A stretch of 32,820 nucleotides of DNA from Flavobacteriales bacterium. Its GTDB lineage: Bacteria > Bacteroidota > Bacteroidia > Flavobacteriales_D > Sanyastnellaceae. Position numbers and translations under genes: made by a program. The notes under the pieces are model-generated. The model worked only from the letters and a program-made list of their open reading frames with translations, searched no databases and was not told where the DNA came from. Position 1 is the stretch's first letter. Each line of letters opens with the position of its first letter. The stretch covers positions 1 through 32,820 of the forward strand of contig JBIKVX010000001.1 of NCBI GenBank assembly GCA_044356625.1, in the 5' to 3' direction. Shown in pieces: positions 1 through 26,497 of the stretch.

Positions 1-1155
1 TTCCAACACAAAATACTTATAAGCAGTCCTTATAAATCCCCAACCTAACTTGTCCATGTTACACTCCGTGGCCATAATAAATACAATTTGTGATTTCTCT
101 ATCTCCTTCATTTGAGAAAGCGGATCAGTATTCGTCATCTTTCTCTCAGGGAGCTTATGTAATTGTTTATTGTAAAAATAAAAATTCAACGATCGGAAAA
201 TGTCCGGCGCCCAAGGTAATTGCAGGAGATTGAAAAAATAACTGTCTGAAATAATTGCAACTTTTGGTTGAACACCAACATTTCCATTGTTAAGGCTGTA
301 CTGCAAGTTCACACTTACACGCGGATAAGCCATTGGAAGAACGTCAATAGGCCAATACAAATTCATTCCCAATCCAATGTCGTCATCCACGCTTTCTATA
401 GTGGTTGAAAGAGGGAGATCTTTTTTGTTCCAAGCGAACTCGTTCATATTATTTCCGCAACGCTTCTTACAAAAATTCACCAATGAATCGGCGGCTAACG
501 TTGCACCGTACTGACTCCAATGAATGCCCGTCTTCGGGAAAAGCGGGGCGGGCGTTTTGCCCTTCATTTCACGAAACCACTTTCCAAAGTCTATGTGCTG
601 AATACCCTGTGATTCCAAGCCTTTCTGGTATTCGGAATAATAACTGCGGTTGGAAAGAATGGGGAATTCATCTGGAATGTATTCCGGATAAAACGAGGCT
701 TTTCCGGGATTCATGACCACCACCAATTCAATGCCTTTCTCTTTCAATTTAGTTTGAAGCGCTTTCAGCATAACAAGGTTCGAATCTACCTGGGCTGTAT
801 TCACCTCTTCAGCACCGCGAAAGGCGTTGATGTATTTGATCTCGTACAAATAATCCTCCTTCCCAATGATGACCCCATTGGCCTTGGCCTTATGAAAAAG
901 TGAAAACGCAATCTGATTGTGGATGCGCACAGCAGTGTTGCGGTATCCGAATTGCTCGTTGATGTATTTGTTTCGATTCTCTTGGTAAGTGCCGTCGAAC
1001 CATGATTCGAGGGTTAGTGAATCTTTTGCAGTTGGTTCTATAGAACCGAAGAGTGGACCCACTTCAACAAAAGGTTTTACCATTTGTATCATAGGAAGAA
1101 ACATGCCTATGAGAACGATAGAGAACAAGACGGTATGGAAGCGATTGTTCTTCAT
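1..1155 (-). CDS. AlgX/AlgJ-like (SGNH-fold, DHHW-type) polysaccharide O-acetylation partner protein; 3' end runs off the window
   Basis: Absent from the ORF track because it has no in-window stop. I read the minus strand codon by codon from ATG 1155-1153 to position 1 and found no stop (385 codons). It has an N-terminal signal anchor MKNNRFHTVLFSIVLIGMFLP and an internal FPKTGIHWSQYGA motif typical of AlgJ/AlgX-type partners. Its ATG overlaps the TAA of the upstream MBOAT gene (TAATG). It displaces track ORFs 405..716(+) and 989..1174(+). Confidence 0.7.
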   Translation of the reverse strand, partial: MKNNRFHTVLFSIVLIGMFLPMIQMVKPFVEVGPLFGSIEPTAKDSLTLESWFDGTYQENRNKYINEQFGYRNTAVRIHNQIAFSLFHKAKANGVIIGKEDYLYEIKYINAFRGAEEVNTAQVDSNLVMLKALQTKLKEKGIELVVVMNPGKASFYPEYIPDEFPILSNRSYYSEYQKGLESQGIQHIDFGKWFREMKGKTPAPLFPKTGIHWSQYGATLAADSLVNFCKKRCGNNMNEFAWNKKDLPLSTTIESVDDDIGLGMNLYWPIDVLPMAYPRVSVNLQYSLNNGNVGVQPKVAIISDSYFFNLLQLPWAPDIFRSLNFYFYNKQLHKLPERKMTNTDPLSQMKEIEKSQIVFIMATECNMDKLGWGFIRTAYKYFVLE

Positions 1156-2606
1156 TAGAATCGGAAATAAATGAAGGGGTTAAATCCGCTTGCGGTGATG
1201 TAGCTCAACGAAAGAACAAAGAGCGCTGCTGAAACGATTGTCAATGCTAGATGTCCGGCGTTTCCAATTGTTCGCTGACCGAATACCGAATCTTGAAATT
1301 TCGTTGTTTTGGGAAGTAGTAAGAAGAATGAAAACAACGTCGCCAAGGCCGCAATAAGCATCCATTCGGTATCAATTTTTACCGTTACATATCCGTTGAA
1401 TGAAAACATTGCATGCAGATATCCCCATGCCCTATGCAAATCTTCCACGCGGAAAAATACCCAACCGATTACTACCACGACAAACGTGAAAGCTACGCGT
1501 GTAATTTTCCCGATGGAACCAAACCAACGGATTAAAAACGCGCGCTCCAATACCAAGAACAATCCGTGCCAAGCGCCCCAGATGATGTAGTTCCAAGAAG
1601 CTCCGTGCCACAGTCCGGAAAGTAAAAACACCAACCACAAGTTGAAGTACAATCTTCCTTTTCCCACCTTGTTTCCACCCAATGGAATGTAGAGGTAGTT
1701 GCGCATCCATCCGCCCAAGGTCATGTGCCAACGGCGCCAGAACTCGGTGATGTTTTGAGAGACATACGGATTGTTGAAGTTCTCTGGAAATTTAAATCCA
1801 ACCATTCGTCCAATCCCAATGGCCATGTCGGAATATCCGCTGAAGTCGAAATAGATTTGAAACGTGTAAGACAGCGCGGCCAACCAAGCGGCTCCCATGG
1901 AAAGCGTATTCGGATCAAGCGCACCAGCGCCTGTTTCCGCATTGCCGTATATGCTGTCTGCAAAGGCCGCCAGCGCATTGGCTATCAAAACTTTTTTTCC
2001 TAAACCAATGCAAAATCTATAAAAACCGAGCAAACGTTCGGTACTGTTTTCGGTCTTCGAACGATCGGGAATTTGATCGGCGATATCATGGTACCGAATA
2101 ATAGGACCCGCAATTAATTTCGGAAAAAGGATGATGTACAACTGATAGTCCCAAAAGTTCTTGAGCGGCTTATGCACTCTTCGAAAAACATCTACCACAT
2201 AAGTAAGTGTTTCAAAGGTGTAGAATGAAATACCTATCGGAAGCACCAACTTCGTCCATGGAATGCTGCTCTCCATACCCACTCCCTTCATAGCAACATT
2301 CACATTCTCTATGAAGAAGTTCATGTATTTGAAATACACGAGCAACCCAAGGTTCATGACCACTGAAAACACGAGTAGTGCTTTTCGCTCGGATTCATTC
2401 TTGCTGCGATCCATTCTTCCCACCAAGAAAAAATCTATGAGAGTTGTCCCAATAATGACGAAGATAAATTTCGGCGCACCCCACGCATAGAAGAACACGC
2501 TTGACAAGAGCAAGAATGGATTCTTCAATTTCTTCGGGCATATCCAATACAGCAGCAGGAAGGCTGGGAGGAAGGTGGTGAGGAAGATGGCGGATGAAAA
2601 AACCAT
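1155..2606 (-). CDS. MBOAT-family membrane O-acyltransferase (AlgI/DltB-like)
   Basis: 483-aa polytopic membrane protein. MBOAT signatures are present: ITEFWRRWHMTLGGWMRNYLYIPLGG and LSGLWHGASWNY (conserved His). It is translationally coupled to the downstream AlgX/AlgJ-like ORF. Confidence 0.9.
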   Translation of the reverse strand: MVFSSAIFLTTFLPAFLLLYWICPKKLKNPFLLLSSVFFYAWGAPKFIFVIIGTTLIDFFLVGRMDRSKNESERKALLVFSVVMNLGLLVYFKYMNFFIENVNVAMKGVGMESSIPWTKLVLPIGISFYTFETLTYVVDVFRRVHKPLKNFWDYQLYIILFPKLIAGPIIRYHDIADQIPDRSKTENSTERLLGFYRFCIGLGKKVLIANALAAFADSIYGNAETGAGALDPNTLSMGAAWLAALSYTFQIYFDFSGYSDMAIGIGRMVGFKFPENFNNPYVSQNITEFWRRWHMTLGGWMRNYLYIPLGGNKVGKGRLYFNLWLVFLLSGLWHGASWNYIIWGAWHGLFLVLERAFLIRWFGSIGKITRVAFTFVVVVIGWVFFRVEDLHRAWGYLHAMFSFNGYVTVKIDTEWMLIAALATLFSFFLLLPKTTKFQDSVFGQRTIGNAGHLALTIVSAALFVLSLSYITASGFNPFIYFRF

Positions 2607-2610
2607 TCAG

Positions 2611-2618
2611 CGAATATA
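2611..2618 (-). promoter_or_regulatory. Candidate Bacteroidota -7 box TATATTCG (one mismatch to TAnnTTTG), 4 nt upstream of the MBOAT ATG
   Basis: The minus strand reads CGGCTTCGCCG-TATATTCG-CTGA-ATG. The box directly abuts the outermost hairpin of the array at 2619-2812. Confidence 0.3.
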
Positions 2619-2812
2619 CGGCGAAGCCGATGACACCGAAGGTGATGACCCTACGGGATGACACTGCGTGATGACCGTTCCGGATGACACTCCGTGATGA
2701 CGCTCCGCGAAGCGGTCATCGAACTTGTTCGTCATCACATGAAATGTGTCATCCCAGAGGGTCATCAATCGTAGATTGTCATCCCGAAGGGTCATCCAGC
2801 TCCGCTGGTGAT
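2619..2812. repeat. Mini-hairpin array A: 13 consecutive short stem-loops joined by ATGA (x6), then TCAT (x6) linkers
   Basis: Direct parse of the + strand: CGGCgaaGCCG ATGA CACCgaaGGTG ATGA CCCtacGGG ATGA CACtgcGTG ATGA CCGttcCGG ATGA CACtccGTG ATGA cgctCCGCgaaGCGG TCAT CGAACttGTTCG TCAT CACATgaaATGTG TCAT CCCagaGGG TCAT CAATCgtaGATTG TCAT CCCgaaGGG TCAT CCAGCtccGCTGG TGAT. It lies in the divergent gap between the MBOAT gene and the phosphosugar mutase gene. Confidence 0.85.
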
Positions 2813-2820
2813 TATATTTG
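2813..2820 (+). promoter_or_regulatory. Candidate Bacteroidota -7 promoter box TATATTTG for the phosphosugar mutase gene
   Basis: Exact match to TAnnTTTG, 17 nt upstream of ATG 2838 and immediately after the last hairpin of array A. Confidence 0.4.
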
Positions 2821-2837
2821 TTACAAACAAAGAAGAA

Positions 2838-4610
2838 ATGACCCCCTTAGAATCCGCAAAAGAAAAAGCTAGACTTTGGAAAACATACGATTTAGATGAA
2901 GAGACGCGCAACGAGATTGAGCGTATGGAAAGAGAAGATGAGAAGTTGTTCATTGATTCGTTTTATTCGGATTTGGAATTTGGAACGGGTGGTTTGCGCG
3001 GTGTCATGGGTGTGGGAAGCATGCGTATGAACAAGTATACCGTGGGGATGGCTACGCAGGGATTGGCGAATTATATTTTGAAACACCATGCGCAAATGGG
3101 TGGAGAAGGCTCGGTGGCGATTGCGTATGACTCGCGAAACAATTCAAGTTACTTCGCGAATATTGCGTCTGAGATTTTGGCGAAGAATGGCATTCATGTT
3201 TATCTCTTTTCAGAATTGCGTCCAACACCGCTGTTGTCGTTCACCGTTCGTGAATTGAAATGCACGGCGGGTATTGTTATCACTGCTTCGCACAATCCGA
3301 AGGAGTACAACGGGTATAAAGTTTATTGGAGCGATGGCGGGCAGATATTGCCGCCGCATGACGGGGGGATAATCACGGAAGTGAAGATTGCAAATGCTGC
3401 GCAAGATGTTTCACAAGATGCAAATGCTTTGCAAGATTCTTCGAAAGATTCCTTCGGAAAGATTGGTGAAATAAAGGAAGTTCCTTCGGCAGTAGAAGAA
3501 AAATACCTGGAACTCGTTCGAGGATTGACGCTTTCTGAAGATGCCGTGAAGCAAGAGAAAGACATTTCCATTGTGTATACTTCTATACACGGTTCAGGGA
3601 TAACGTTGGTACCGAAGACATTGGCGGCGTTGGGGTTTTCGAATGTGAGTGTGGTGGAAGAGCAGGCGGTGCCCGATGGGAATTTCCCGACGGTGGAGTC
3701 ACCGAATCCGGAAGAGAAGTCGGCCATGAAAATGGCGTTGGAGTTGGGAGAGAAGGTAAATGCGGAATTGGTATTGGGAACAGATCCGGATACCGATCGC
3801 GTGGGATTGGCAGTGAGAAACGACAACAATGAATTGGTGTTGATCAATGGAAATCAAGCAGGAAGCTTGTTGGTGTATTACCGTTTGTTGGTGGGAAAGG
3901 AAAAAGGAAAATTACCTGAACATCCGTTTATTGGAAAGACGATTGTGACAACCGAATTGATTGCACGCATTGCGGAATCGTTCGGGGTGCCGTGTTACGA
4001 CACGTTAACCGGATTCAAGTTTATCGCGGGATTGATTAAAGAAAAAGAAGGAAAGGAAAATTTTGTAGCGGGTGGAGAAGAGAGCTACGGCTATTTGGTG
4101 AGTGATTTTGTGCGCGACAAAGACGCTGCATTGTCGGCTGTTCAGTTCGCAGAGATAGCGGCTTACGCGAAGAACAAAGGAACAACGATGTGGGGAATGT
4201 TGAAAGACCTTTACTTACAACACGGCGTGTTCCAGGAAGAGTTGGTAAGCATTACGTTGAAGGGAATAGACGGTGTTGCGCAGATTCAAAGCATGATGTC
4301 GCGTCTTCGCACCACACCTCCGCAAACCCTTGGCGGAGTAGCGCTAGCAGAATTGCACGATGTGAAAGCTGGCACCTGTAAAAACATGATTACCGGAGCA
4401 ACAACCACACTCCCCTATCCAAGCTCAGACGTCTTGCAATTCATCCTCACCGACGGCAGCAAGATCAGTGCTCGTCCAAGTGGGACGGAACCGAAGATTA
4501 AGTTTTACTTTTCGTTAAGGAAGGAGATTTCTTCTTCAGAAGAAATTTCTTCAGTTCAGAATGAACTGACAAAGAAGATTGAAATAATTAAAGCAGAGCT
4601 TTTGAATTAA
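2838..4610 (+). CDS. Phosphoglucomutase/phosphomannomutase family phosphosugar mutase (PgcA-like)
   Basis: Family loops present: TASHNPKEYNGYK (phosphoserine loop), GTDPDTDR (metal loop), GGEESYG (sugar loop), RPSGTEPKIKFY (phosphate loop). The track ORF begins at GTG 2808 inside the promoter-like box. I prefer the in-frame ATG at 2838 (MTPLESAKEK...). Confidence 0.9.
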   Translation: MTPLESAKEKARLWKTYDLDEETRNEIERMEREDEKLFIDSFYSDLEFGTGGLRGVMGVGSMRMNKYTVGMATQGLANYILKHHAQMGGEGSVAIAYDSRNNSSYFANIASEILAKNGIHVYLFSELRPTPLLSFTVRELKCTAGIVITASHNPKEYNGYKVYWSDGGQILPPHDGGIITEVKIANAAQDVSQDANALQDSSKDSFGKIGEIKEVPSAVEEKYLELVRGLTLSEDAVKQEKDISIVYTSIHGSGITLVPKTLAALGFSNVSVVEEQAVPDGNFPTVESPNPEEKSAMKMALELGEKVNAELVLGTDPDTDRVGLAVRNDNNELVLINGNQAGSLLVYYRLLVGKEKGKLPEHPFIGKTIVTTELIARIAESFGVPCYDTLTGFKFIAGLIKEKEGKENFVAGGEESYGYLVSDFVRDKDAALSAVQFAEIAAYAKNKGTTMWGMLKDLYLQHGVFQEELVSITLKGIDGVAQIQSMMSRLRTTPPQTLGGVALAELHDVKAGTCKNMITGATTTLPYPSSDVLQFILTDGSKISARPSGTEPKIKFYFSLRKEISSSEEISSVQNELTKKIEIIKAELLN

Positions 4611-8745: not shown

Positions 8746-9284
8746 AGTTTCTTTCTTGCAATTAATCTTACATGCTCTTCCTTTTCTTTGTTCGAGTCAA
8801 ATCTATCTCTTATTTTTTTTGCGGGATTTCCAGCATAAATAGCGTAAGGCTCGGTGTCTCGTGTAACCACAGAACCCGCTGCTATTAAACAACCGTCATG
8901 AATATTCACCCCCTGCATAATTGTTGAACCATAGCCTATCCACACATCATTGCCAATTCGAGTAACTAAATCTATTCCTTTCCAATTGTAGTGCTTATCT
9001 CTTATGGCGGAAGCTAAGCGAATTGGTGTGCCAATTTGTTGAAAGTTGTGGTCATATTTACCAACTACAGCCACCCGATTGCCAAAAATCACATTGTCAC
9101 CAATGATACAATCGGTTTCAATAAAAGAATCTCTTCCCAAATAAAAGTTTTTTCCTATAACCATTGTAGCTTTTGCCCAAATATTCGTGCGTTTTCCAGC
9201 ATGAAATCCCTTGTTTATTTTATACTTTCGATATTTAATTTGAACTAAGAAAATATCTCTAAACTTTTTTAAAAGCCTTCTCAT
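8742..9284 (-). CDS. Hexapeptide-repeat (LbH) O-acetyltransferase
   Basis: [50 protein letters not shown] is a typical left-handed beta-helix acetyltransferase C-terminus. Confidence 0.8.
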
Positions 9285-10177
9285 AATCCCAAAATTGTTT
9301 CGATTTTAGACCGTATTCTAGCAATATAGCCCATTTTTTTTTGAAATGATTTTTGCATTTCTGTGTCAATCTGTGTTATTCGAGGAAATTCAAAGTGCAC
9401 ATTGTTCTGCGCCTCAAAAATAGGAATATAGCGCTTTGAAGAGCCTCGTGTATGGGTCGAATTCATTCCAAAACCTACGTTTCGTATTTTTGAGACCTTT
9501 GGATAGAGTGTTAAGCCTTTTTCTTTAAATTGAGCGTAGAACCAACGAATGGCCCAAGAATCCAAGTCGCCGTTCATTTGTTTTTTTAACATTTGATTTA
9601 AATCTGATCCGCCTTTTGCAAATAGTCTTTTAGATTCTCTATCAACACTAAAACTTTCATAATCACTCATATTCCAATCAACTCTTTCCCATCGATTTTT
9701 CCATGTGGACCAGCCCCATGACCAGCCTCGATTCAAAAAATAAAACTCTGATTGATTATTCTTATTTAAATTAAATGAATATCCCGAAATTGAAAACACT
9801 GACGGTGATTCGTTAAATCGAATCAAGCCTTCATTCATGAAATTTAGAAAATTGGCACTTGTTACCAAATCATCTTCTAAAACAACAATCTTTTCATGAT
9901 CTAGAAAAATTTTACTAACCCCCTGAATAATTGAGTTTGCTAGCCCCATATTTTCAGTCGCTTCATAGACTTTTAGCAATTTAAACCCTTCAATTGCATT
10001 AACATAGGATCTTACTTTATCTACTTCAATCTTATCTACATCATTTTTCGCTGCATCACAAAAAACATACAATTCAGAGTCCGGCGCTAAAAAATTATTT
10101 TTAAGGGCCTCAACTGTTTGAATTAAAGTGTCAAGCCGTTTATAACAAAACAGTACAATTGGAGCTAATTGAGTCAT
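9281..10177 (-). CDS. Glycosyltransferase, GT-A fold (family not assigned)
   Basis: [13 protein letters not shown]...YVFCDAAKN...VVLEDDL gives a Rossmann-like N-terminus with an EDD-type acidic motif. It sits inside a glycosyltransferase run. The family call is tentative. Confidence 0.6.
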
Positions 10178-10211
10178 CTTTATTAAAATATTATGAGCAT
10201 GTCTTAAGTAT

Positions 10212-11051
10212 TTATTGTTTTAATTTCCACAATGCTGGTACAATTGCCCGTAAATGAATGGTAATATAGTGAAAACAGGCCACTACTAAACCATTATGTC
10301 TTTTATCGAATACAAAAAATTCGGGTGGGTAACAACCGCTCGATGCTGTATATAAATTTTGCAATCGCTTTCTCAAACCTACGGAAGTATTCCGCCATTT
10401 AGGAACAAAATCATGACTTTCACAGGTACCTATATAATCGGGGGCAACTAATATCTCGATTCCCATTTTACGTGCCCGAAGACTGTAATCGAAATCGCCC
10501 ACAGCATGATGAAAAATAGGGTCCAGATTTCCTACCTTGCGAAAAACTTCTTTTGGAATTAAAACGCAATTGCCGTTGCAATAGTCACTCCTTTGGTAGT
10601 CACCATTGGGTAAAACTAATTTCCGTAGTGTATTATTGTAACCGCCATAAGTTGCTTTTTGATCAAGTTGGGATTTCGTAGTTCCGCAAACGATAGCACT
10701 CGGAAACTTTTCCTTTAATAAAATTTGAAATGCATTTTTTTTCAAAAAAGTATCGTCATTCAACCATAAATAACAATCAAAATCTTTCGCAGCTGCTGCA
10801 GTTTCCCATGCCAGATGCATACCACGGTTCCAATACAGATTTCCATTCCCTTGAATGATGTATACTTGTGGGAACTCGTTTTTTACCGCTTCGCCAGTTC
10901 CATCATTAGAAGCATCGTCAACTAAAAAGACATCAATGGAATAGGATTCTTCTAATCCAGCTTGTTCGTACAAGGCGGTAACGCATTGGATGGTTTTATC
11001 CCGGCGATTGTGGCAGGTAAGAAGTACTGCAATTGTTGAGATTAGGATCAT
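10212..11051 (-). CDS. Glycosyltransferase family 2
   Basis: AVLLTCHNRRDKT...VFLVDDASNDGT...WLNDDTFL are classic GT2 motifs. Confidence 0.85.
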   Translation of the reverse strand: MILISTIAVLLTCHNRRDKTIQCVTALYEQAGLEESYSIDVFLVDDASNDGTGEAVKNEFPQVYIIQGNGNLYWNRGMHLAWETAAAAKDFDCYLWLNDDTFLKKNAFQILLKEKFPSAIVCGTTKSQLDQKATYGGYNNTLRKLVLPNGDYQRSDYCNGNCVLIPKEVFRKVGNLDPIFHHAVGDFDYSLRARKMGIEILVAPDYIGTCESHDFVPKWRNTSVGLRKRLQNLYTASSGCYPPEFFVFDKRHNGLVVACFHYITIHLRAIVPALWKLKQ

Positions 11052-11197
11052 TTAAAAACTAAACTAATTGGTTAAAAATACTTAATACAGTCTTTTTTCT
11101 TTCTGGGATTAGTATTTGAAATATACAGCACTCCCAGTATTTCAATTCTATTTTTCTTGAGCCAACAAACAAACATGTCTGGAGATAATAAAGACGA

Positions 11198-12427
11198 TCA
11201 GAATTGAGCAATTTTTTTATTGAAGTGGTTTGTTCCGGCATTTTGTTTTGATCGTTTCACATAAAAAAGAATTAAAATTATTGGGGAGAATTCCATTGGA
11301 TTCGAGAATATTATAAAAAGAATGCATAAAGTTGTAAAAATTGTGATTAAATGATTTTTTGAAAAATGTTGTAAGTTTCTATACAATAAACCTAAATATA
11401 TGATTAGGCCAAAAACCCCAAAAACCAACAAAAGATAAAATAAACCAGATGATCTAATTACATTAGCGCCATAAATTTTATAAAGACTGTTTTTTCCCGT
11501 TGTTTGTATATCAACACCGTATCCTAATAAAGGACGCTCCAAGAATGTCGGGAAATCTATAATGACACTAGTAAATCTTGTGACGCCGACAATATAGTCA
11601 GGGTTTTTATAAGCTTTATCAGCTTCTTCTTCGATTCCCTCTAGTTGAGCACTAATTTTACCGGATAATACTTGCGAATTATAAAATAAATACATCCCAA
11701 CTGGGAAAAATATAGCGAGGCCAATTACCTTGACTCTGCCTTTATAATTATTAAGAAAATTAAAAAGTAAAATCAAACCAAGCAATAAGTAACCCGTTGT
11801 AGATATAGTTGTCAATAAACCTAATGAGATAATTATCTTTTCTCTGGGTTTTTTTTCAGAGCTGTAAAATTGTAAAAGCAAAAGTGCTATAATTAAAAGT
11901 GCAGCAAAAGCACCTGGCTCCCACATGCAACCACTGTTCCGAATTGGGTGAACGCGGGTAAAATTAAAAAATAGCGAGTTAGAATTACCTCGAGAATCCA
12001 TCCCAAACAAGTTATTGAATTTAAACAATAAGTCGGGGACCAGTAATTGCAACACATATCCGAAAAAACTCACAATCGTCAAAAAACAGACAACTTTTAT
12101 AAAATTGTCAATGAACTGACTTTTATTTATTCTGACAATGAGAATTGCTAAAATGATTTTTATCAACCATCCCACCCATGTTACAATATTAATGCTCGAA
12201 TTTGCCACATAATAGTAGCCTATAATAAATATTACTAAAAATAATATGCTAAATAATTGTTTGCTAGAAAATTGAAATATTCTTTTTTTGATAGCATAAC
12301 CGAGCGTGAATAAAAAAAATAAACTTATGTAAATTTCATCTGATGAAATAAAAGATGCATTAGAACTAAATACAATCAAGGCAAAAACGAAAAAGTTATC
12401 GATGATTTGCTGTTTATTGATAATCAT
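11198..12427 (-). CDS. O-antigen/EPS polymerase (Wzy-like) polytopic membrane protein
   Basis: About 10 predicted TM segments, very A+T-rich, located between the flippase/acetyltransferase and glycosyltransferases. The track ORF extends to 12526 across the upstream gene. I start it at the in-frame ATG 12427 (MIINKQQ...). The function call rests on topology and context only. Confidence 0.6.
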   Translation of the reverse strand: MIINKQQIIDNFFVFALIVFSSNASFISSDEIYISLFFLFTLGYAIKKRIFQFSSKQLFSILFLVIFIIGYYYVANSSINIVTWVGWLIKIILAILIVRINKSQFIDNFIKVVCFLTIVSFFGYVLQLLVPDLLFKFNNLFGMDSRGNSNSLFFNFTRVHPIRNSGCMWEPGAFAALLIIALLLLQFYSSEKKPREKIIISLGLLTTISTTGYLLLGLILLFNFLNNYKGRVKVIGLAIFFPVGMYLFYNSQVLSGKISAQLEGIEEEADKAYKNPDYIVGVTRFTSVIIDFPTFLERPLLGYGVDIQTTGKNSLYKIYGANVIRSSGLFYLLLVFGVFGLIIYLGLLYRNLQHFSKNHLITIFTTLCILFIIFSNPMEFSPIILILFYVKRSKQNAGTNHFNKKIAQF

Positions 12428-13052
12428 TATTGTGTTTAATAAATTTAGCTGGGTTCCCTGCCCAAATTTCATTTTTTGGTATGGACTTCGTAACAACAGA
12501 ACATGCCCCGACAATAGAGTTTTCACCTATGATTACACCTTTTAGGATTGTCGAATGGGCCCCAATAAAGCAATTATCCTCTAAGAATACTGGTGCCGTT
12601 TTGGTATTTGATTTATCTAACTTACTGTTGTTTCTGTTGTCAGGATTCAAACTATGGAAATCCGTATCATAAATAACAACATTTCCTCCTATTCTTACAT
12701 TATTACCTATTGTAATGACATTCGAGCAGAAAATAGCTGTTGAACTCATACCTAAATTATTTCCTATTTTCAGAACGCCTTTTTCACCAACAATTATACT
12801 ACATTTATTAAACCGGCCTATTGGATTAGCGTTTTCTCTATTGTTCATTTTCAAATTTTCTCCTATGAAGAGATAACCTCCTAATGAAACGTTTACTTTC
12901 GGCACTCCATTACTTTTAAAAGTCGAGAATTTGGCGCCGTTCACAAATAACAAAATATATGTTGTTAAATAATCTATTGGTTTTTGAATTATGAAAATAA
13001 TTCTTTTTAAGACTTTAAAAAGGCGTGTTAAGGTCATTTTCATTGGTTCCAA
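12414..13052 (-). CDS. Hexapeptide-repeat (LbH) acetyltransferase
   Basis: IGNNVRIGGNVVIYDTDFHSL...CFIGAHSTILKGVIIGENSIVGACSVVTKSIPKNEIWAGNPAKFI. Confidence 0.8.
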   Translation of the reverse strand: MEPMKMTLTRLFKVLKRIIFIIQKPIDYLTTYILLFVNGAKFSTFKSNGVPKVNVSLGGYLFIGENLKMNNRENANPIGRFNKCSIIVGEKGVLKIGNNLGMSSTAIFCSNVITIGNNVRIGGNVVIYDTDFHSLNPDNRNNSKLDKSNTKTAPVFLEDNCFIGAHSTILKGVIIGENSIVGACSVVTKSIPKNEIWAGNPAKFIKHNNDYQ

Positions 13053-14404
13053 ATTCCTTTTGCTGTTTCAGATATAATTTTTTTAAACTGTATTCTAGAA
13101 AAAATAACCCCCGGGGCAATACAAATTATAGTGCTAATCATAACTCCTACAACTCCAAAATCAAGTGATTTTGCAATGTAAATAGAAAGAGGTATATTTA
13201 TTAGTGCCATTAATAAAGACAGGTATAGTTGAATCTTAATTTTTCCAGTTGCATTTATATAATAATTATATGGTGTTAACACAATAATAAAAATCGTCAT
13301 AATGCAAACCGCAAGATTTATTTCAAAAGGAATGAATACGGAGGGACCTAGCCAAAAATTTAAAATGTACTTTGACAGAAATAGAATCACTAAACAGAGA
13401 ATTGAAAATAGAATAACAAATCGCTCAAGACTCTTCATAGCACCTTTAATCCAGATGGTATCGGCTTTCACATGCGCCTCCGTAAAAGTTGACCAATAGG
13501 GGGTCGCCAATATTGCAAATATCATTGAACTAATCGTAAATAGTTTTAAGGAAAGGTTATATTGAACAACATCTTCAGGGGAGAATAGTTGAGAAATAAT
13601 TATATTGTCGGTAGAGGTAATTACCACCCATGAAATTTGAATTATAAAAAATTTGCTCCCCAATCCGAAAATATCTTTCAAGTGCTCTTTCTTCCAATAT
13701 TTATAATCAGGTTTGCAATAGTTATATCGTCCTTTAAAAGCAAGGAAATTAAACCCAACCAACAAAAGTGCAGGAAACACTGAGTAAATAACACCAAAAA
13801 TAAGCAAAGAACTATTTGTGGTTTTCGTCAACAACCAAACTATCAACAAGGACCCTAAATTAGTAAGAAAAGTTATCTTCCCTTGAGTTGAATGGTGTTG
13901 GTCCGCTGTATAAATTGTGGTTATTAGTTTTACGACTAATTGCAAACAGAAGAAACCAAATAAAATAGGCATTAAGAGACCTAGGTCTTTGTGTAATGAC
14001 GGAGAGGTATTAAAGACTTTCGTCCAATCAATAAAAAAGTTAAGTCCTACAAACAAAATAATTAACCCGATACTAACAGCACCAATTGTGAAATAAGCTG
14101 AACTCACAAAAGCCTTGGCAAGAGTTAAATCTCCATTGGCCTTGGCTTCGGCAAATTTATTGCGTAAACCATTACCTAATCCAATGTCAAAAAATGAAAA
14201 CCAAGCAATAAAAGAACTCAACGTTAACCAAATTCCATAATTCTCTATTTCTAGAAAATTAATGGTCAATGGGACAATCATAAAACTCGCCAATATACTT
14301 CCGCCTTTGTAAATAAAAGAAAGAAGAACATGCTTGGTTATGTTTTTCGTGCGGTCGCTTTTAATCCCAAATTTATTGTAAAGCTTTTCTATTCTTCGTC
14401 CCAA
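13040..14404 (-). CDS. wzx: Wzx-type polysaccharide flippase (MOP superfamily)
   Basis: 454 aa with about 12 TM segments and a typical position in the cluster. The track start is TTG 14404 with an A-rich upstream region; the exact start is uncertain. Confidence 0.8.
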   Translation of the reverse strand: MGRRIEKLYNKFGIKSDRTKNITKHVLLSFIYKGGSILASFMIVPLTINFLEIENYGIWLTLSSFIAWFSFFDIGLGNGLRNKFAEAKANGDLTLAKAFVSSAYFTIGAVSIGLIILFVGLNFFIDWTKVFNTSPSLHKDLGLLMPILFGFFCLQLVVKLITTIYTADQHHSTQGKITFLTNLGSLLIVWLLTKTTNSSLLIFGVIYSVFPALLLVGFNFLAFKGRYNYCKPDYKYWKKEHLKDIFGLGSKFFIIQISWVVITSTDNIIISQLFSPEDVVQYNLSLKLFTISSMIFAILATPYWSTFTEAHVKADTIWIKGAMKSLERFVILFSILCLVILFLSKYILNFWLGPSVFIPFEINLAVCIMTIFIIVLTPYNYYINATGKIKIQLYLSLLMALINIPLSIYIAKSLDFGVVGVMISTIICIAPGVIFSRIQFKKIISETAKGIWNQ

Positions 14405-14555
14405 TTCTTTCTTTATAAAAATTTATTTCAAGACTATAATAGTCGTGCCTCTTGCTCATCCCACGAAATTGCAAATGATTTTGCTACCCTGAAGCGATTT
14501 GGTGGCATTCAAGGTAATTGACATCGCAATGGCCATAATGGCTTCACACTTCTTA

Positions 14556-20232: not shown

Positions 20233-20318
20233 AATTAACTTTTAAGCGAAGATACGAATAGACCAAACATTGTTAAGAAAAGAAGGATGAACTTCGTAAT
20301 TGGAAAACCTTTGGTTTT

Positions 20319-20360
20319 ATTCCTACTTCGTAATTCCTATTTCATAATTCCTACTTTGTA
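20319..20360. repeat. Three tandem 14-bp repeats ATTCCTAYTTYRTA upstream of the dehydrogenase/EPS operon
   Basis: attcctacttcgta (20319-20332), attcctatttcata (20333-20346), attcctactttgta (20347-20360). A partial copy cttcgtaatt lies at 20292-20301. Confidence 0.8.
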
Positions 20361-20427
20361 ATTAGAAACGTCGCAGGCCCTCGTCCACAGGACCCTCGCA
20401 ACGACAGTTGCCCTCGTCTAAAAGACC

Positions 20428-25722: not shown

Positions 25723-25730
25723 CAAATATA
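25723..25730 (-). promoter_or_regulatory. Candidate -7 box TATATTTG abutting array B, 4 nt upstream of the GTG start of the NeuB-like gene
   Basis: The minus strand reads CACGCGAAGTG-TG-TATATTTG-TAAA-GTG. This is the same 8-mer that follows array A. Confidence 0.3.
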
Positions 25731-25732
25731 CA

Positions 25733-25898
25733 CACTTCGCGTGATGACCACTTCGTGGAATACACCTGCTGTGATGACCCTGCGGGATGACGCTTCGCGA
25801 TGACACTTCGTGACAACCATCCGCGAAGCGGTCATCGAACTTGTTCGTCATCGATTGTAAATCGTCATCACACGACGTCTGTCATCCTTCGAAGAAGG
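25733..25898. repeat. Mini-hairpin array B: 11 stem-loops with ATGA-type, then TCAT linkers; same family as array A
   Basis: The + strand parses as CACttcgcGTG ATGA CCACttcGTGG AATA CACctgctGTG ATGA CCCtgcGGG ATGA CGCttcGCG ATGA CACttcGTG ACAA ccatCCGCgaaGCGG TCAT CGAACttGTTCG TCAT CGATTgtaAATCG TCAT CACACgacGTCTG TCAT CCTTCgaaGAAGG. The array ends exactly at the TAA of the DUF2480-like gene (25899-25901). Confidence 0.85.
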
Positions 25899-26393
25899 TT
25901 AACGCTTATAAAGCGGGACAGTGGAGCAGGGCTCTCCGTACATGATGCGGTTGGCAGCGGGTTGAAGTTTTTGAGAGAGTTGTATATACACTTCCTCTGT
26001 TAATCGGAGTGAGGTGCAGCCCTTCACGACTACATTTTTATCTTGAAATTTCGAAAGATCTAATTGTTGAATAAATGAAAGCGCTCTGAGTGTGTCTAAA
26101 TTTTCTGGCGTTGAAAAATGACACTGGGCATTCACTTCGGAAAGTTTCAATGCCAATAGCATAAAGGCCCATACTGGTACAATGGCATCTACCGAACAGT
26201 AAATGGCTACAATTTTATTCTCGAAATTAGAGGTGTCTAATGCAGAAACAAATTCACGAAAGTCCTTTTCCTTCAGGGCAATTCCTTGCCACAATTGTGG
26301 AGCAATATCTATTGTCGAACCTGCAAACGCATCTACTTCTTCAGCTATATCCAGCGTAATGAGTTTACTATTTGCAACCTTGTTTTCAATCAT
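25899..26393 (-). CDS. DUF2480-like conserved Bacteroidota protein (function unknown)
   Basis: 164 aa. LITLDI...KEKDFREF...CSVDAIVPVWAFML...VVKGC...IMYGEPCSTVPLYKR matches my recollection of the DUF2480 family pattern. No search was run. Confidence 0.55.
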   Translation of the reverse strand: MIENKVANSKLITLDIAEEVDAFAGSTIDIAPQLWQGIALKEKDFREFVSALDTSNFENKIVAIYCSVDAIVPVWAFMLLALKLSEVNAQCHFSTPENLDTLRALSFIQQLDLSKFQDKNVVVKGCTSLRLTEEVYIQLSQKLQPAANRIMYGEPCSTVPLYKR

Positions 26394-26397
26394 GGTT

Positions 26398-26405
26398 CAA
26401 AAGTA
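26398..26405 (-). promoter_or_regulatory. Candidate -7 box TACTTTTG, 4 nt upstream of the DUF2480-like ATG
   Basis: The minus strand reads TACTTTTG-AACC-ATG, an exact TAnnTTTG match. Confidence 0.3.
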
Positions 26406-26497
26406 CTTGATTCTGGTGAAAGATGTTTCACAAGATTCTGCGAAAGCTCTTGCGAAGCACCTTCGGAACGACCTTGCTCCGCATCTTGAAACAAATC

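Follow-up and report, generated by a model that had tools for sequence, protein, structure and literature searches.

Two-armed arrays of linker-joined mini-hairpins in freshwater Flavobacteriales

Repetitive extragenic palindromes (REPs) carry by definition a terminal GTAG or CGTC tag, together with a stem of 5-13 bp (GTAG) or 8-9 bp (CGTC). Their units stand mostly alone or form inverted dimers (head-to-head or tail-to-tail), only rarely run head-to-tail, and are associated with a gene for a REP-associated tyrosine transposase (RAYT), a Y1 HUH transposase, the gene being flanked by the repeats (PMC3733652). Here we describe an array of 13 mini-hairpins at positions 2619-2808 of a 32,820-nt stretch of DNA from a Flavobacteriales bacterium (assembly GCA_044356625.1, contig JBIKVX010000001.1; the whole stretch is called the window in the following). 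The building block of this array is an invariant hexamer GTCATC (GATGAC on the opposite strand) plus a perfect mini-palindrome of 7-12 nt. Such blocks follow one another head-to-tail within an arm, up to 13 in a row, and two arms usually oppose each other across a GCGAAGC-type centre. The window array is one copy of a dispersed repeat family of freshwater, Crocinitomicaceae-like Flavobacteriales. The explanation that we consider best, a high-copy, lineage-specific family of mosaic repeats acting at the DNA level, is in our estimate evenly balanced.

With REPs, bacterial interspersed mosaic elements (BIMEs) and REPINs (REP doublets forming hairpins), the array and its relatives share short palindromes with a constant tag, which are high-copy, dispersed and mainly intergenic but sometimes intragenic (PMC3733652, PMC3116915). 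Further points of likeness are the mosaics with constant linkers, the inverted arrangements that fold into one large hairpin, the strain-variable number of units and the presence of several families per genome. The tag, however, is TCAT/ATGA within GTCATC/GATGAC and not GTAG/CGTC; CGTC appears only where a unit ends in C. Stems are 3-6 bp with loops of 2-3 nt, compared to 5-13 bp for REP stems, and the units stand head-to-tail within an arm, so that only the arms are mutually inverted. In addition, about 84 stem-loop types share one tag here, and no RAYT was detected among 463 open reading frames (ORFs) from 128 kb, which is a weak test. The initial annotation had set the element apart from classical REPs, and indeed it departs from the GTAG/CGTC families in tag, stem length and arrangement, while its high-copy, dispersed and intergenic occurrence is that of a REP.

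In Neisseria, the intergenic mosaic elements (NIMEs) consist of variable repeat-sequence (RS) units of 50-150 bp, separated by the constant dRS3, which is itself a 20-bp inverted repeat. NIMEs resemble our arrays as intergenic mosaics of variable units plus one constant short repeat that vary between strains and often lie beside genes for surface structures; here, however, the units are hairpins of only 7-12 nt with a constant part of 6 nt. Cyanobacterial small dispersed repeats and short tandemly repeated repetitive (STRR) heptamer arrays are likewise very small (under 30 nt), hairpin-containing, non-coding, seemingly mobile and tied to short tandem repeats, but they belong to another phylum, have other sequences and are without the grammar of constant linker and variable hairpin or the two-armed architecture. 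The regular alternation of constant and variable segments recalls CRISPR arrays. In these the constant part measures 24-48 nt instead of 6 nt, whereas the variable parts here are self-complementary palindromes from a small shared repertoire and the loci would number hundreds per genome. No cas domains were found among the scanned window genes or the called genes of contigs L293-L299, in line with the earlier exclusion of CRISPR. Features of miniature inverted-repeat transposable elements (MITEs) were also missing, as no shared termini or target-site duplications were seen and the outermost units and flanks vary by locus. An iteron- or centromere-like array, which has direct repeats of fixed spacing beside its cognate rep/par gene and occupies one or a few loci per replicon, was considered and rejected, given the spacing of 13-18 nt, the many chromosomal loci beside unrelated genes and the different linker at the orthologous site.

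Only GNA triloops form the ultra-stable DNA mini-hairpin d(GCGNAGC), which is not captured by nearest-neighbour models and whose RNA counterpart is much weaker (PMC13037366). In sequence, the centre and many units of our arrays contain just such C-GNA-G triloops, exact GCGAAGC and CCGAAGG among them. The loop is most often GAA, which agrees with the reported stability order at its top only (PMC13037366). The known natural examples are single hairpins at priming and promoter sites of phages and plasmids (PMC13037366), whereas here such sequences stand in tandem chromosomal arrays, which are not described there. Our literature search found no description of such mini-hairpin arrays, and the family is apparently undescribed so far. 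As far as this search showed, this would be the first time that the ultra-stable GNA DNA mini-hairpin is met as a chromosomal array, a natural system in which to study the in vivo role of this structure.

Anatomy and unit grammar of the array

By direct reading, the complete two-armed array (2619-2808, no strand assigned) consists of a terminal hairpin, an arm with six GATGAC, the GCGAAGC-type centre, an arm with six GTCATC and a second terminal hairpin. GATGAC starts at 2629, 2644, 2657, 2670, 2683 and 2696, and GTCATC at 2715, 2731, 2748, 2761, 2778 and 2791; the twelve ATGA/TCAT linker coordinates given initially proved exact. All ten spacers that separate like-oriented hexamers are perfect interrupted palindromes. 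Together with the two terminal hairpins (2619-2629 and 2796-2808) and the centre (2705-2715) they make up the 13 hairpins that had been proposed.

The 5' arm (2629-2701, plus strand) contains the spacers ACCGAAGGT, CCTACGG, ACTGCGT, CGTTCCG and ACTCCGT, with one hexamer interval of 15 nt followed by four of 13 nt, and Tandem Repeats Finder reports it with a period of 13. In the 3' arm (2715-2796, plus strand) the spacers are GAACTTGTTC, ACATGAAATGT, CCAGAGG, AATCGTAGATT and CCGAAGG, and the hexamers follow one another at 16, 17, 13, 17 and 13 nt. The arms are joined by the centre CGCTCCGCGAAGCGG (2701-2715, plus strand), whose hairpin CCGC-GAA-GCGG (2705-2715) includes the d(GCGAAGC) mini-hairpin; an alternative hairpin, CGC-TCC-GCG (2701-2709), overlaps it. 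The same centre occurs in the second copy within the window (25731-25898) and at loci L013, L034, L043, L181, L218, L297 and L298 of related assemblies. Of the outer hairpins, both read on the plus strand, the one on the side of the MBOAT-family O-acyltransferase gene (CGGC-GAA-GCCG, 2619-2629) is kept in the orthologues L013, L218, L115 and L298, while that on the side of the phosphoglucomutase/phosphomannomutase gene (CCAGC-TCC-GCTGG, 2796-2808) is found also in L038. Read through from the left, the element thus runs from CGGCGAAGCC through GATGAC and spacers of the 5' arm to GCT-CCGCGAAGCG; after CCGCGAAGCG come GTCATC and spacers of the 3' arm, ending with CAGCTCCGCTGG. The initial annotation had parsed a gap of 194 bp into hairpins with no base left over. 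The array is real, but the gap measures 231 bp, the array fills only 2619-2808 of it, and GCT at 2702-2704 stays outside the central hairpin, unless the two overlapping central hairpins are taken as alternatives.

As controls we used 1000 shuffles of the region and 100 dinucleotide shuffles of the window, any 4-mer being allowed as linker in the latter. The window contains 29 GATGAC compared to an expected 13.2 +/- 3.4, a number that none of 100 shuffles attained. The longest run of linkers and perfect hairpins comprises five hairpins and six linkers per arm, and runs in the shuffles, the control proposed at the outset, never exceeded one. These data, together with the orthologous arrays in L297, L298 and L299, confirm the mini-hairpin array. 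No solo units were seen outside arrays within the window.

The invariant unit is the hexamer G-ATGA-C, and the pair that closes each stem is provided by its outer G and C. It is therefore correct that every stem is closed by C and G, but this pair is simply part of the hexamer. The constant part does not extend to TGATGAC, as had been assumed, for the preceding base is T or G. Within the family, the exact hexamer is present in about 96% of the internal linkers, at a spacing of 13-18 nt; stems have 3-6 bp, counting the closing C-G pair, and loops have 2-3 nt. Units have lengths that are not divisible by 3, and orthologues differ in how many they contain; the two 62-aa ORFs called here are therefore artefacts, as had been suspected.

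The 260 spacers between like-oriented hexamers at family loci represent only 84 distinct types, which are common across genomes. Recurrent types include CGGAACG, ACGCAGT, GCGAAGC, CTTCGAAGAAG, ACATGAAATGT, GAACTTGTTC, GATTGTAAATC, AAACGAAGTTT and ACAACGTGTTGT. Perfect palindromes account for 167 of 190 spacers. Among distinct unit types, 22 of 27, 22 of 24 and 18 of 19 are fully paired, compared to shuffle means of 6.0, 4.8 and 2.3, and 98-99% of the pair cells are Watson-Crick, while slid controls pair at about 30%. The covariation scores are 0.86 and 0.67 versus 0.20 and 0.14 in shuffles, none of the 500 shuffles scoring as high. One-sided pair changes are absent in about 190 pair cells, and hence there is no G-T wobble. 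These comparisons show that the hairpin palindromes are kept by covariation and constrained as DNA-type palindromes. The initial statement that the stems vary yet always pair holds in this respect; the variation, though, is not free but drawn from the shared repertoire of about 84 types. On the GTCATC strand, 102 loops are GNA (GAA 65, GCA 20, GTA 13, GGA 4), against 19 complements.

Folding with nearest-neighbour parameters rates the single units as marginal, at 0 to -3.4 kcal/mol for DNA and 0 to -5.5 kcal/mol for RNA. For the whole element as a free single strand, the predicted optimum is not a row of 13 hairpins. As DNA, one long imperfect hairpin is predicted (-57.7 kcal/mol, z = -8.6), and as RNA the whole element reaches -99 kcal/mol (z = -8.1), compared to -40 kcal/mol when only local pairing is allowed. 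The two arms can therefore pair with each other, and the earlier claim that they are not complementary and form no long cruciform is not supported thermodynamically. Despite this predicted global fold, the palindromy of each unit is explained solely by local hairpins. Strict Watson-Crick palindromy, the GNA loops and the location upstream of promoters argue that the relevant hairpins would form at the level of DNA rather than RNA.

Related arrays, linker flavours and turnover

Pattern scans retrieved the same architecture from assemblies of freshwater Flavobacteriales, Crocinitomicaceae and Bacteroidota. A scan of a genome collection for three consecutive GATGAC-N7 gave at least about 13 true loci (L012, L013, L034, L038, L043, L053, L067, L083, L087, L106, L110, L115 and L117), most of the matches listed being unrelated high-GC loci. 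In metagenomes, a scan for four GATGAC-N7 returned mostly unrelated 13-mer satellites, with family members only at L181, L186, L218, L251 and L259 (L181, L218, L251 and L259 are our further pattern-scan loci). Contigs obtained via homologues of the mutase (L293-L299) carry additional arrays. Two other repeats turned up beside these. Seven Brevundimonas genomes (L046, L054, L057, L068, L078, L095 and L113) have an unrelated conserved GTCATC-N7-GTCATC-N7-GTCATC-N4-GATGAC with non-palindromic spacers at an equal relative position, which may be a regulator-binding site. The metagenome contig L242 has a 2.8-kb satellite at 1379-4205 with about 200 tandem 13-mers (GTCATC plus ACxCAGT variants), which is not of the hairpin type and appears unrelated to the arrays.

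About 30 hexamer arrays in the related assemblies have unit types in common, and all of them are intergenic, lying between divergent, convergent and tandem genes. Given this spread, and a second copy within the window, the array cannot be regarded as a special element of the divergent gene pair, as was first thought. Many arrays begin 11-23 nt from an ORF end or stop codon, or follow a terminator. In loci that were not chosen for arrays we count about one per 5-10 kb, which extrapolates to perhaps hundreds per genome. A general detector, requiring a constant linker of 3-6 nt and at least three perfect mini-hairpins, found 66 arrays of linker and hairpin in 128 kb versus 0-1 in shuffles. Contigs from the window's own population often break inside an array. 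The viral contigs scanned for the centre motif gave 51 matches, all by chance and none with arrays, and BLAST against plasmids and phages returned no match. A search of the translated arrays against a protein database for fused or neighbouring genes gave only four weak matches, and Rfam had no match in the window at gathering thresholds, its E-value mode yielding only noise (E >= 0.12).

The linker itself is exchangeable. Besides GTCATC, the flavours seen on the GNA strand are TTGA (hexamer ATTGAT), TCT (AAGAT on the opposite strand), CCT, ATTC, GGAAT and CCTC. Upstream of the mutase gene the GATGAC flavour is found in the window, L297 and L298, the ATCAAT|ATTGAT flavour in L293 (9843-9975) and L294 (3643-3775), the AAGAT|ATCTT flavour in L295 (about 9819-10000) and a GATGAC|ATCTT hybrid in L296 (about 2860-2960). 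The mutases of these genomes are 88-96% identical to that of the window; a gene other than MBOAT stands to the left in L294 and L296. The comparison shows the flavours to interchange at the orthologous gap, with an array grammar that is independent of any single linker. All two-armed arrays, hybrids included, have the arm with TNC loops 5' and that with GNA loops 3' (13 to 0). Outward-facing TGA stops in all frames were tried as the origin of this polarity and rejected, for the ATCAAT and AAGAT flavours have no stops in the 5' arm. The orientation of the centre relative to local GC skew is 14 to 5 in raw counts and about 7 to 4 when orthologues are collapsed.

One array of another flavour lies inside the mutase gene. 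At 3384-3464 (plus strand), an AAGAT-linked mini-hairpin array with a period of 12-18 nt stands in-frame between Pfam domains I and II and encodes ...QDVSQDANALQDSSKDSFG..., with the ORF intact. We mapped this insertion with close homologues, as the homologues in the PDB are too distant to show it. The lengths of mutase homologues with 84-96% identity lie between 578 and 647 aa. A hypervariable run of tetrapeptides (QDSS, KDAS, QDVA and others) exactly at the 3384-3464 site makes up part of this spread, and the remainder is due to start codons that were placed too far upstream, within the intergenic array. The intragenic array has two arms of its own, AGG followed by CCT, in L294, L295 and L259. 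Rickettsia palindromic elements (RPEs) and intragenic REPs are the closest parallel, as the AAGAT, AGG and CCT flavours (12-nt period) likewise stand in-frame in a conserved enzyme gene and encode a variable peptide; RPEs, however, are single insertions of about 100-150 bp, whereas we find an array with a variable number of 12-nt hairpin units. This in-frame version provides repeat-driven length variation within a core metabolic enzyme. The positions taken together show that arrays are tolerated wherever frame or function permits.

Between orthologues, arrays change mainly by gain and loss. In 12 orthologous pairs, we counted 35 identical and 18 similar units versus 117 that were inserted or deleted. 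The changes in similar units fall mostly on the middle loop base, and two are compensatory stem swaps. These alignments show the arrays to change in whole-unit steps. Over 7.7 kb the flanks of L298/L299 match the window at 88.5% identity, each 100 nt containing 6-13 mismatches as far as 2609 and once more from 2823 onwards, and yet the array has no mismatch in 190 aligned positions; the sole difference is a 90-nt duplication of a three-unit block. The reverse is seen in L034 and L115, where the flanks are 90-97% identical, yet few units are in common. The hypervariable unit number makes the arrays strain markers for abundant freshwater Flavobacteriales. Non-orthologous arrays have about 110-120 nt in common at 84-87% identity; cores have therefore been copied or moved between sites. 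The gene for a DUF2480 protein with its array (window 25729-26405) is inverted in L117 (123-816) relative to the synteny on the superoxide dismutase side, at 81% identity; the inverted segment has an array at each end or close to it, which points to an array-mediated inversion.

Competing explanations of the arrays

In our best reading, for which we see as much reason to believe as to doubt, the arrays are a REP/BIME-like mosaic repeat family at the DNA level, which changes via slippage or recombination between the linkers. The units would form hairpins in single-stranded or extruded DNA, and would serve neither as RNA nor as the sequence code of a protein. Growth, shrinkage and reshuffling by whole units, evident from the orthologues, would likely result when identical linkers mispair by strand slippage or recombine unequally, and the palindromy would be upheld by selection for the hairpin, by hairpin-templated correction, or by both. 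The cores shared by unrelated intergenic sites have been spread or copied between them, probably in the fashion of REPs, BIMEs and REPINs. Arrays end at stop codons, terminators or -7 promoter boxes, and possibly they expand until they meet one of these. Effects on adjacent genes are probably incidental, with no dedicated control of the MBOAT or mutase gene. If this is true, the few known bacterial interspersed repeats would be joined by a new architecture, that of mini-hairpins set in tandem by a fixed linker, in a phylum that is hardly described for such elements.

Several observations weigh against a purely passive family of this kind. The absence of mismatches over 190 array positions amid 88.5% identical flanks, together with the same unit types in genomes that have diverged by about 20%, suggests stronger constraint or more active homogenisation than neutral slippage predicts. 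Single hairpins are marginal by nearest-neighbour parameters, with 0 to -3.4 kcal/mol as DNA. The 13-to-0 polarity of the arms is uniform even with non-complementary linkers, and slippage alone is insufficient for it. Finally, the loci examined yielded neither a mobilising enzyme nor a target-site duplication, nor any conserved termini.

A dedicated enzyme that recognises hairpins, be it a RAYT-like transposase of the HUH/Y1 type or another single-strand DNA recombinase, would have the arrays as its substrates or products. It would cut the linker beside a hairpin and insert, excise or copy units and cores, with a cognate enzyme for each linker flavour. The grammar of tag and hairpin parallels that of GTAG/CGTC-tagged REPs, which RAYT cleaves as single strands (PMC3733652), and the co-occurrence of several flavours in one genome, the discrete repertoire common to genomes, the turnover mostly in whole units with almost no point changes and the cores common to non-orthologous sites would all fit. 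A more active process of this kind is even hinted at by the orthologue free of mismatches, by the repertoire that genomes share and by the one polarity of all two-armed arrays. We nevertheless think this explanation unlikely. A phmmer search with an IS200 TnpA query, a weak test, found no IS200/Y1-type ORF among the 463 ORFs from 128 kb of family loci, and no transposase Pfam family appeared among the scanned window genes or the called genes around the arrays. Moreover, stems of 3-6 bp lie below any known RAYT or TnpA substrate, head-to-tail units are rare in known REP families and the window holds no solo units. Such an enzyme, should there be one, would provide a new DNA tool with specificity for hairpins. 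A still wider proposal, which we make tentatively and with more doubt than confidence, is that the arrays represent a new class of bacterial element, in which GNA-triloop DNA mini-hairpins are strung together like cassettes by linkers specific to each flavour, and are written, erased and copied by dedicated single-strand-DNA machinery that also imposes the arm polarity. Such machinery would explain the discrete repertoire, the few point changes beside rapid unit turnover, the flavour swaps and the in-frame diversification of an enzyme.

The other readings place the function in RNA or in a bound protein, and both fit fewer facts than our best reading or a dedicated enzyme. A transcribed array could fold into a long branched hairpin that terminates transcription or shields upstream mRNA from 3' exonucleases, as REPs and BIMEs do in E. 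coli. The frequent start of arrays 11-23 nt from a stop codon or behind a terminator, the folding energy of the whole element as RNA (-99 kcal/mol, z = -8.1) and the two-armed design, which reads identically from both sides, speak for this role, but we hold it to be quite improbable: the array at 2619-2808, like several others, separates divergent genes and stands upstream of both -7 boxes, so that transcription from the flanking promoters is improbable, the loops are GNA triloops and not GNRA or UNCG tetraloops, about 190 pair cells contain no G-U wobble, there is neither a U-tract nor an Rfam match, and the same grammar occurs inside coding sequence. Very improbable, too, is the idea of a DNA-binding protein, be it nucleoid-structuring, partition-like or a transcription factor, to which the hexamers would offer iterated sites and through which the array would regulate or insulate the flanking promoters. 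It would account for linkers that are about 96% exact beside variable spacers, for arrays that abut putative -7 promoter boxes and for a motif that is inverted between the arms; the palindromy and covariation of the spacers, however, are left unexplained. An irregular spacing of 13-18 nt, different linkers (ATCAAT, AAGAT) beside the same promoter in orthologous gaps, arrays between convergent genes and inside an ORF, and a unit number that varies freely among close relatives argue further against it, and the TGATGAC half-site array suggested in the initial annotation is unlikely on the same grounds of linker and spacing. Chance or an assembly artefact, which the frequent breaks of metagenome assemblies within arrays might suggest, is refuted, as shuffles never reproduce the pattern and identical or orthologous arrays are present in independent JGI, ENA, NCBI and Logan assemblies.

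Neighbouring genes and further arrays in the window

The intergenic gap that holds the array at 2619-2808 extends from 2607 to 2837 (231 bp), as homologues agree on both the MBOAT start at 2606 and the mutase ATG at 2838. The MBOAT-family O-acyltransferase gene on the left (1155-2606, minus strand) was assigned by Pfam (PF03062, E = 3e-32) and orthologous gene calls, the phosphoglucomutase/phosphomannomutase gene on the right (2838-4610, plus strand) by Pfam and the N-termini of homologues (MTPLESAKEKA). The Pfam families of the window, with DUF2480 and polysaccharide genes, assign it to Bacteroidota. Between gene and array stands on each side a TAnnTTTG-like box, which we take to be the -7 promoter element of Bacteroidota. 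The putative box of the MBOAT gene, TATATTCG (2611-2618, minus strand), abuts the array, with the same layout in L115 and L013; that of the mutase gene, TATATTTG (2813-2820, plus strand), follows 4 nt past the array and is conserved in L293, L294 and L298. The flanking ATATAC and TATATTTG were also considered as terminal inverted repeats, and this was rejected, both being the -7 boxes of the neighbouring genes.

In metagenomes the arrays are a reason why contigs break and ORFs are mis-called. Reading frames are carried straight through them by gene callers, with systematic annotation errors as the result (L298 1229-2959; proteins P0004, P0016, P0018 and P0023), for example an MBOAT protein of 576 aa in place of 483 aa, and mutases that are extended at the N-terminus.

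The second copy of the element, at 25731-25898 (no strand assigned) between the DUF2480 and NeuB genes, has four GATGAC plus one degenerate hexamer, the centre CCGCGAAGCGG and four GTCATC. It is bounded by the stop codon of the DUF2480 gene (25899-25901) and the -7 box of the NeuB gene (25723-25730). Its centre and the first two units of its 3' arm are identical to those of the copy at 2619-2808, and over about 110-120 nt it is 84-87% identical to non-orthologous arrays in L043 and L034. ORF callers run the NeuB gene through this copy (384 aa); the true start is probably GTG 25718.

Arrays of other flavours occupy two further gaps. At 20304-20426 (intergenic, no strand assigned), ATTCC-linked TAC.TTC.GTA units are followed by CCTC-linked hairpins, and the gap between the DUF2480 and superoxide dismutase genes carries AGA-linked and CCT-linked mini-hairpin arrays (26411-26483, no strand assigned), which share AAGATGTTTCACAAGAT with the array inside the mutase gene. 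Overall, four of the six window gaps of at least 100 nt carry an array, and the two empty ones fall into a low-GC island at 9-14 kb. This stretch (about 9000-14500, 30-37% GC) holds glycosyltransferase, unknown and membrane genes within a polysaccharide locus, and its array-free gaps, 11052-11197 and 14405-14555, are consistent with recent acquisition.

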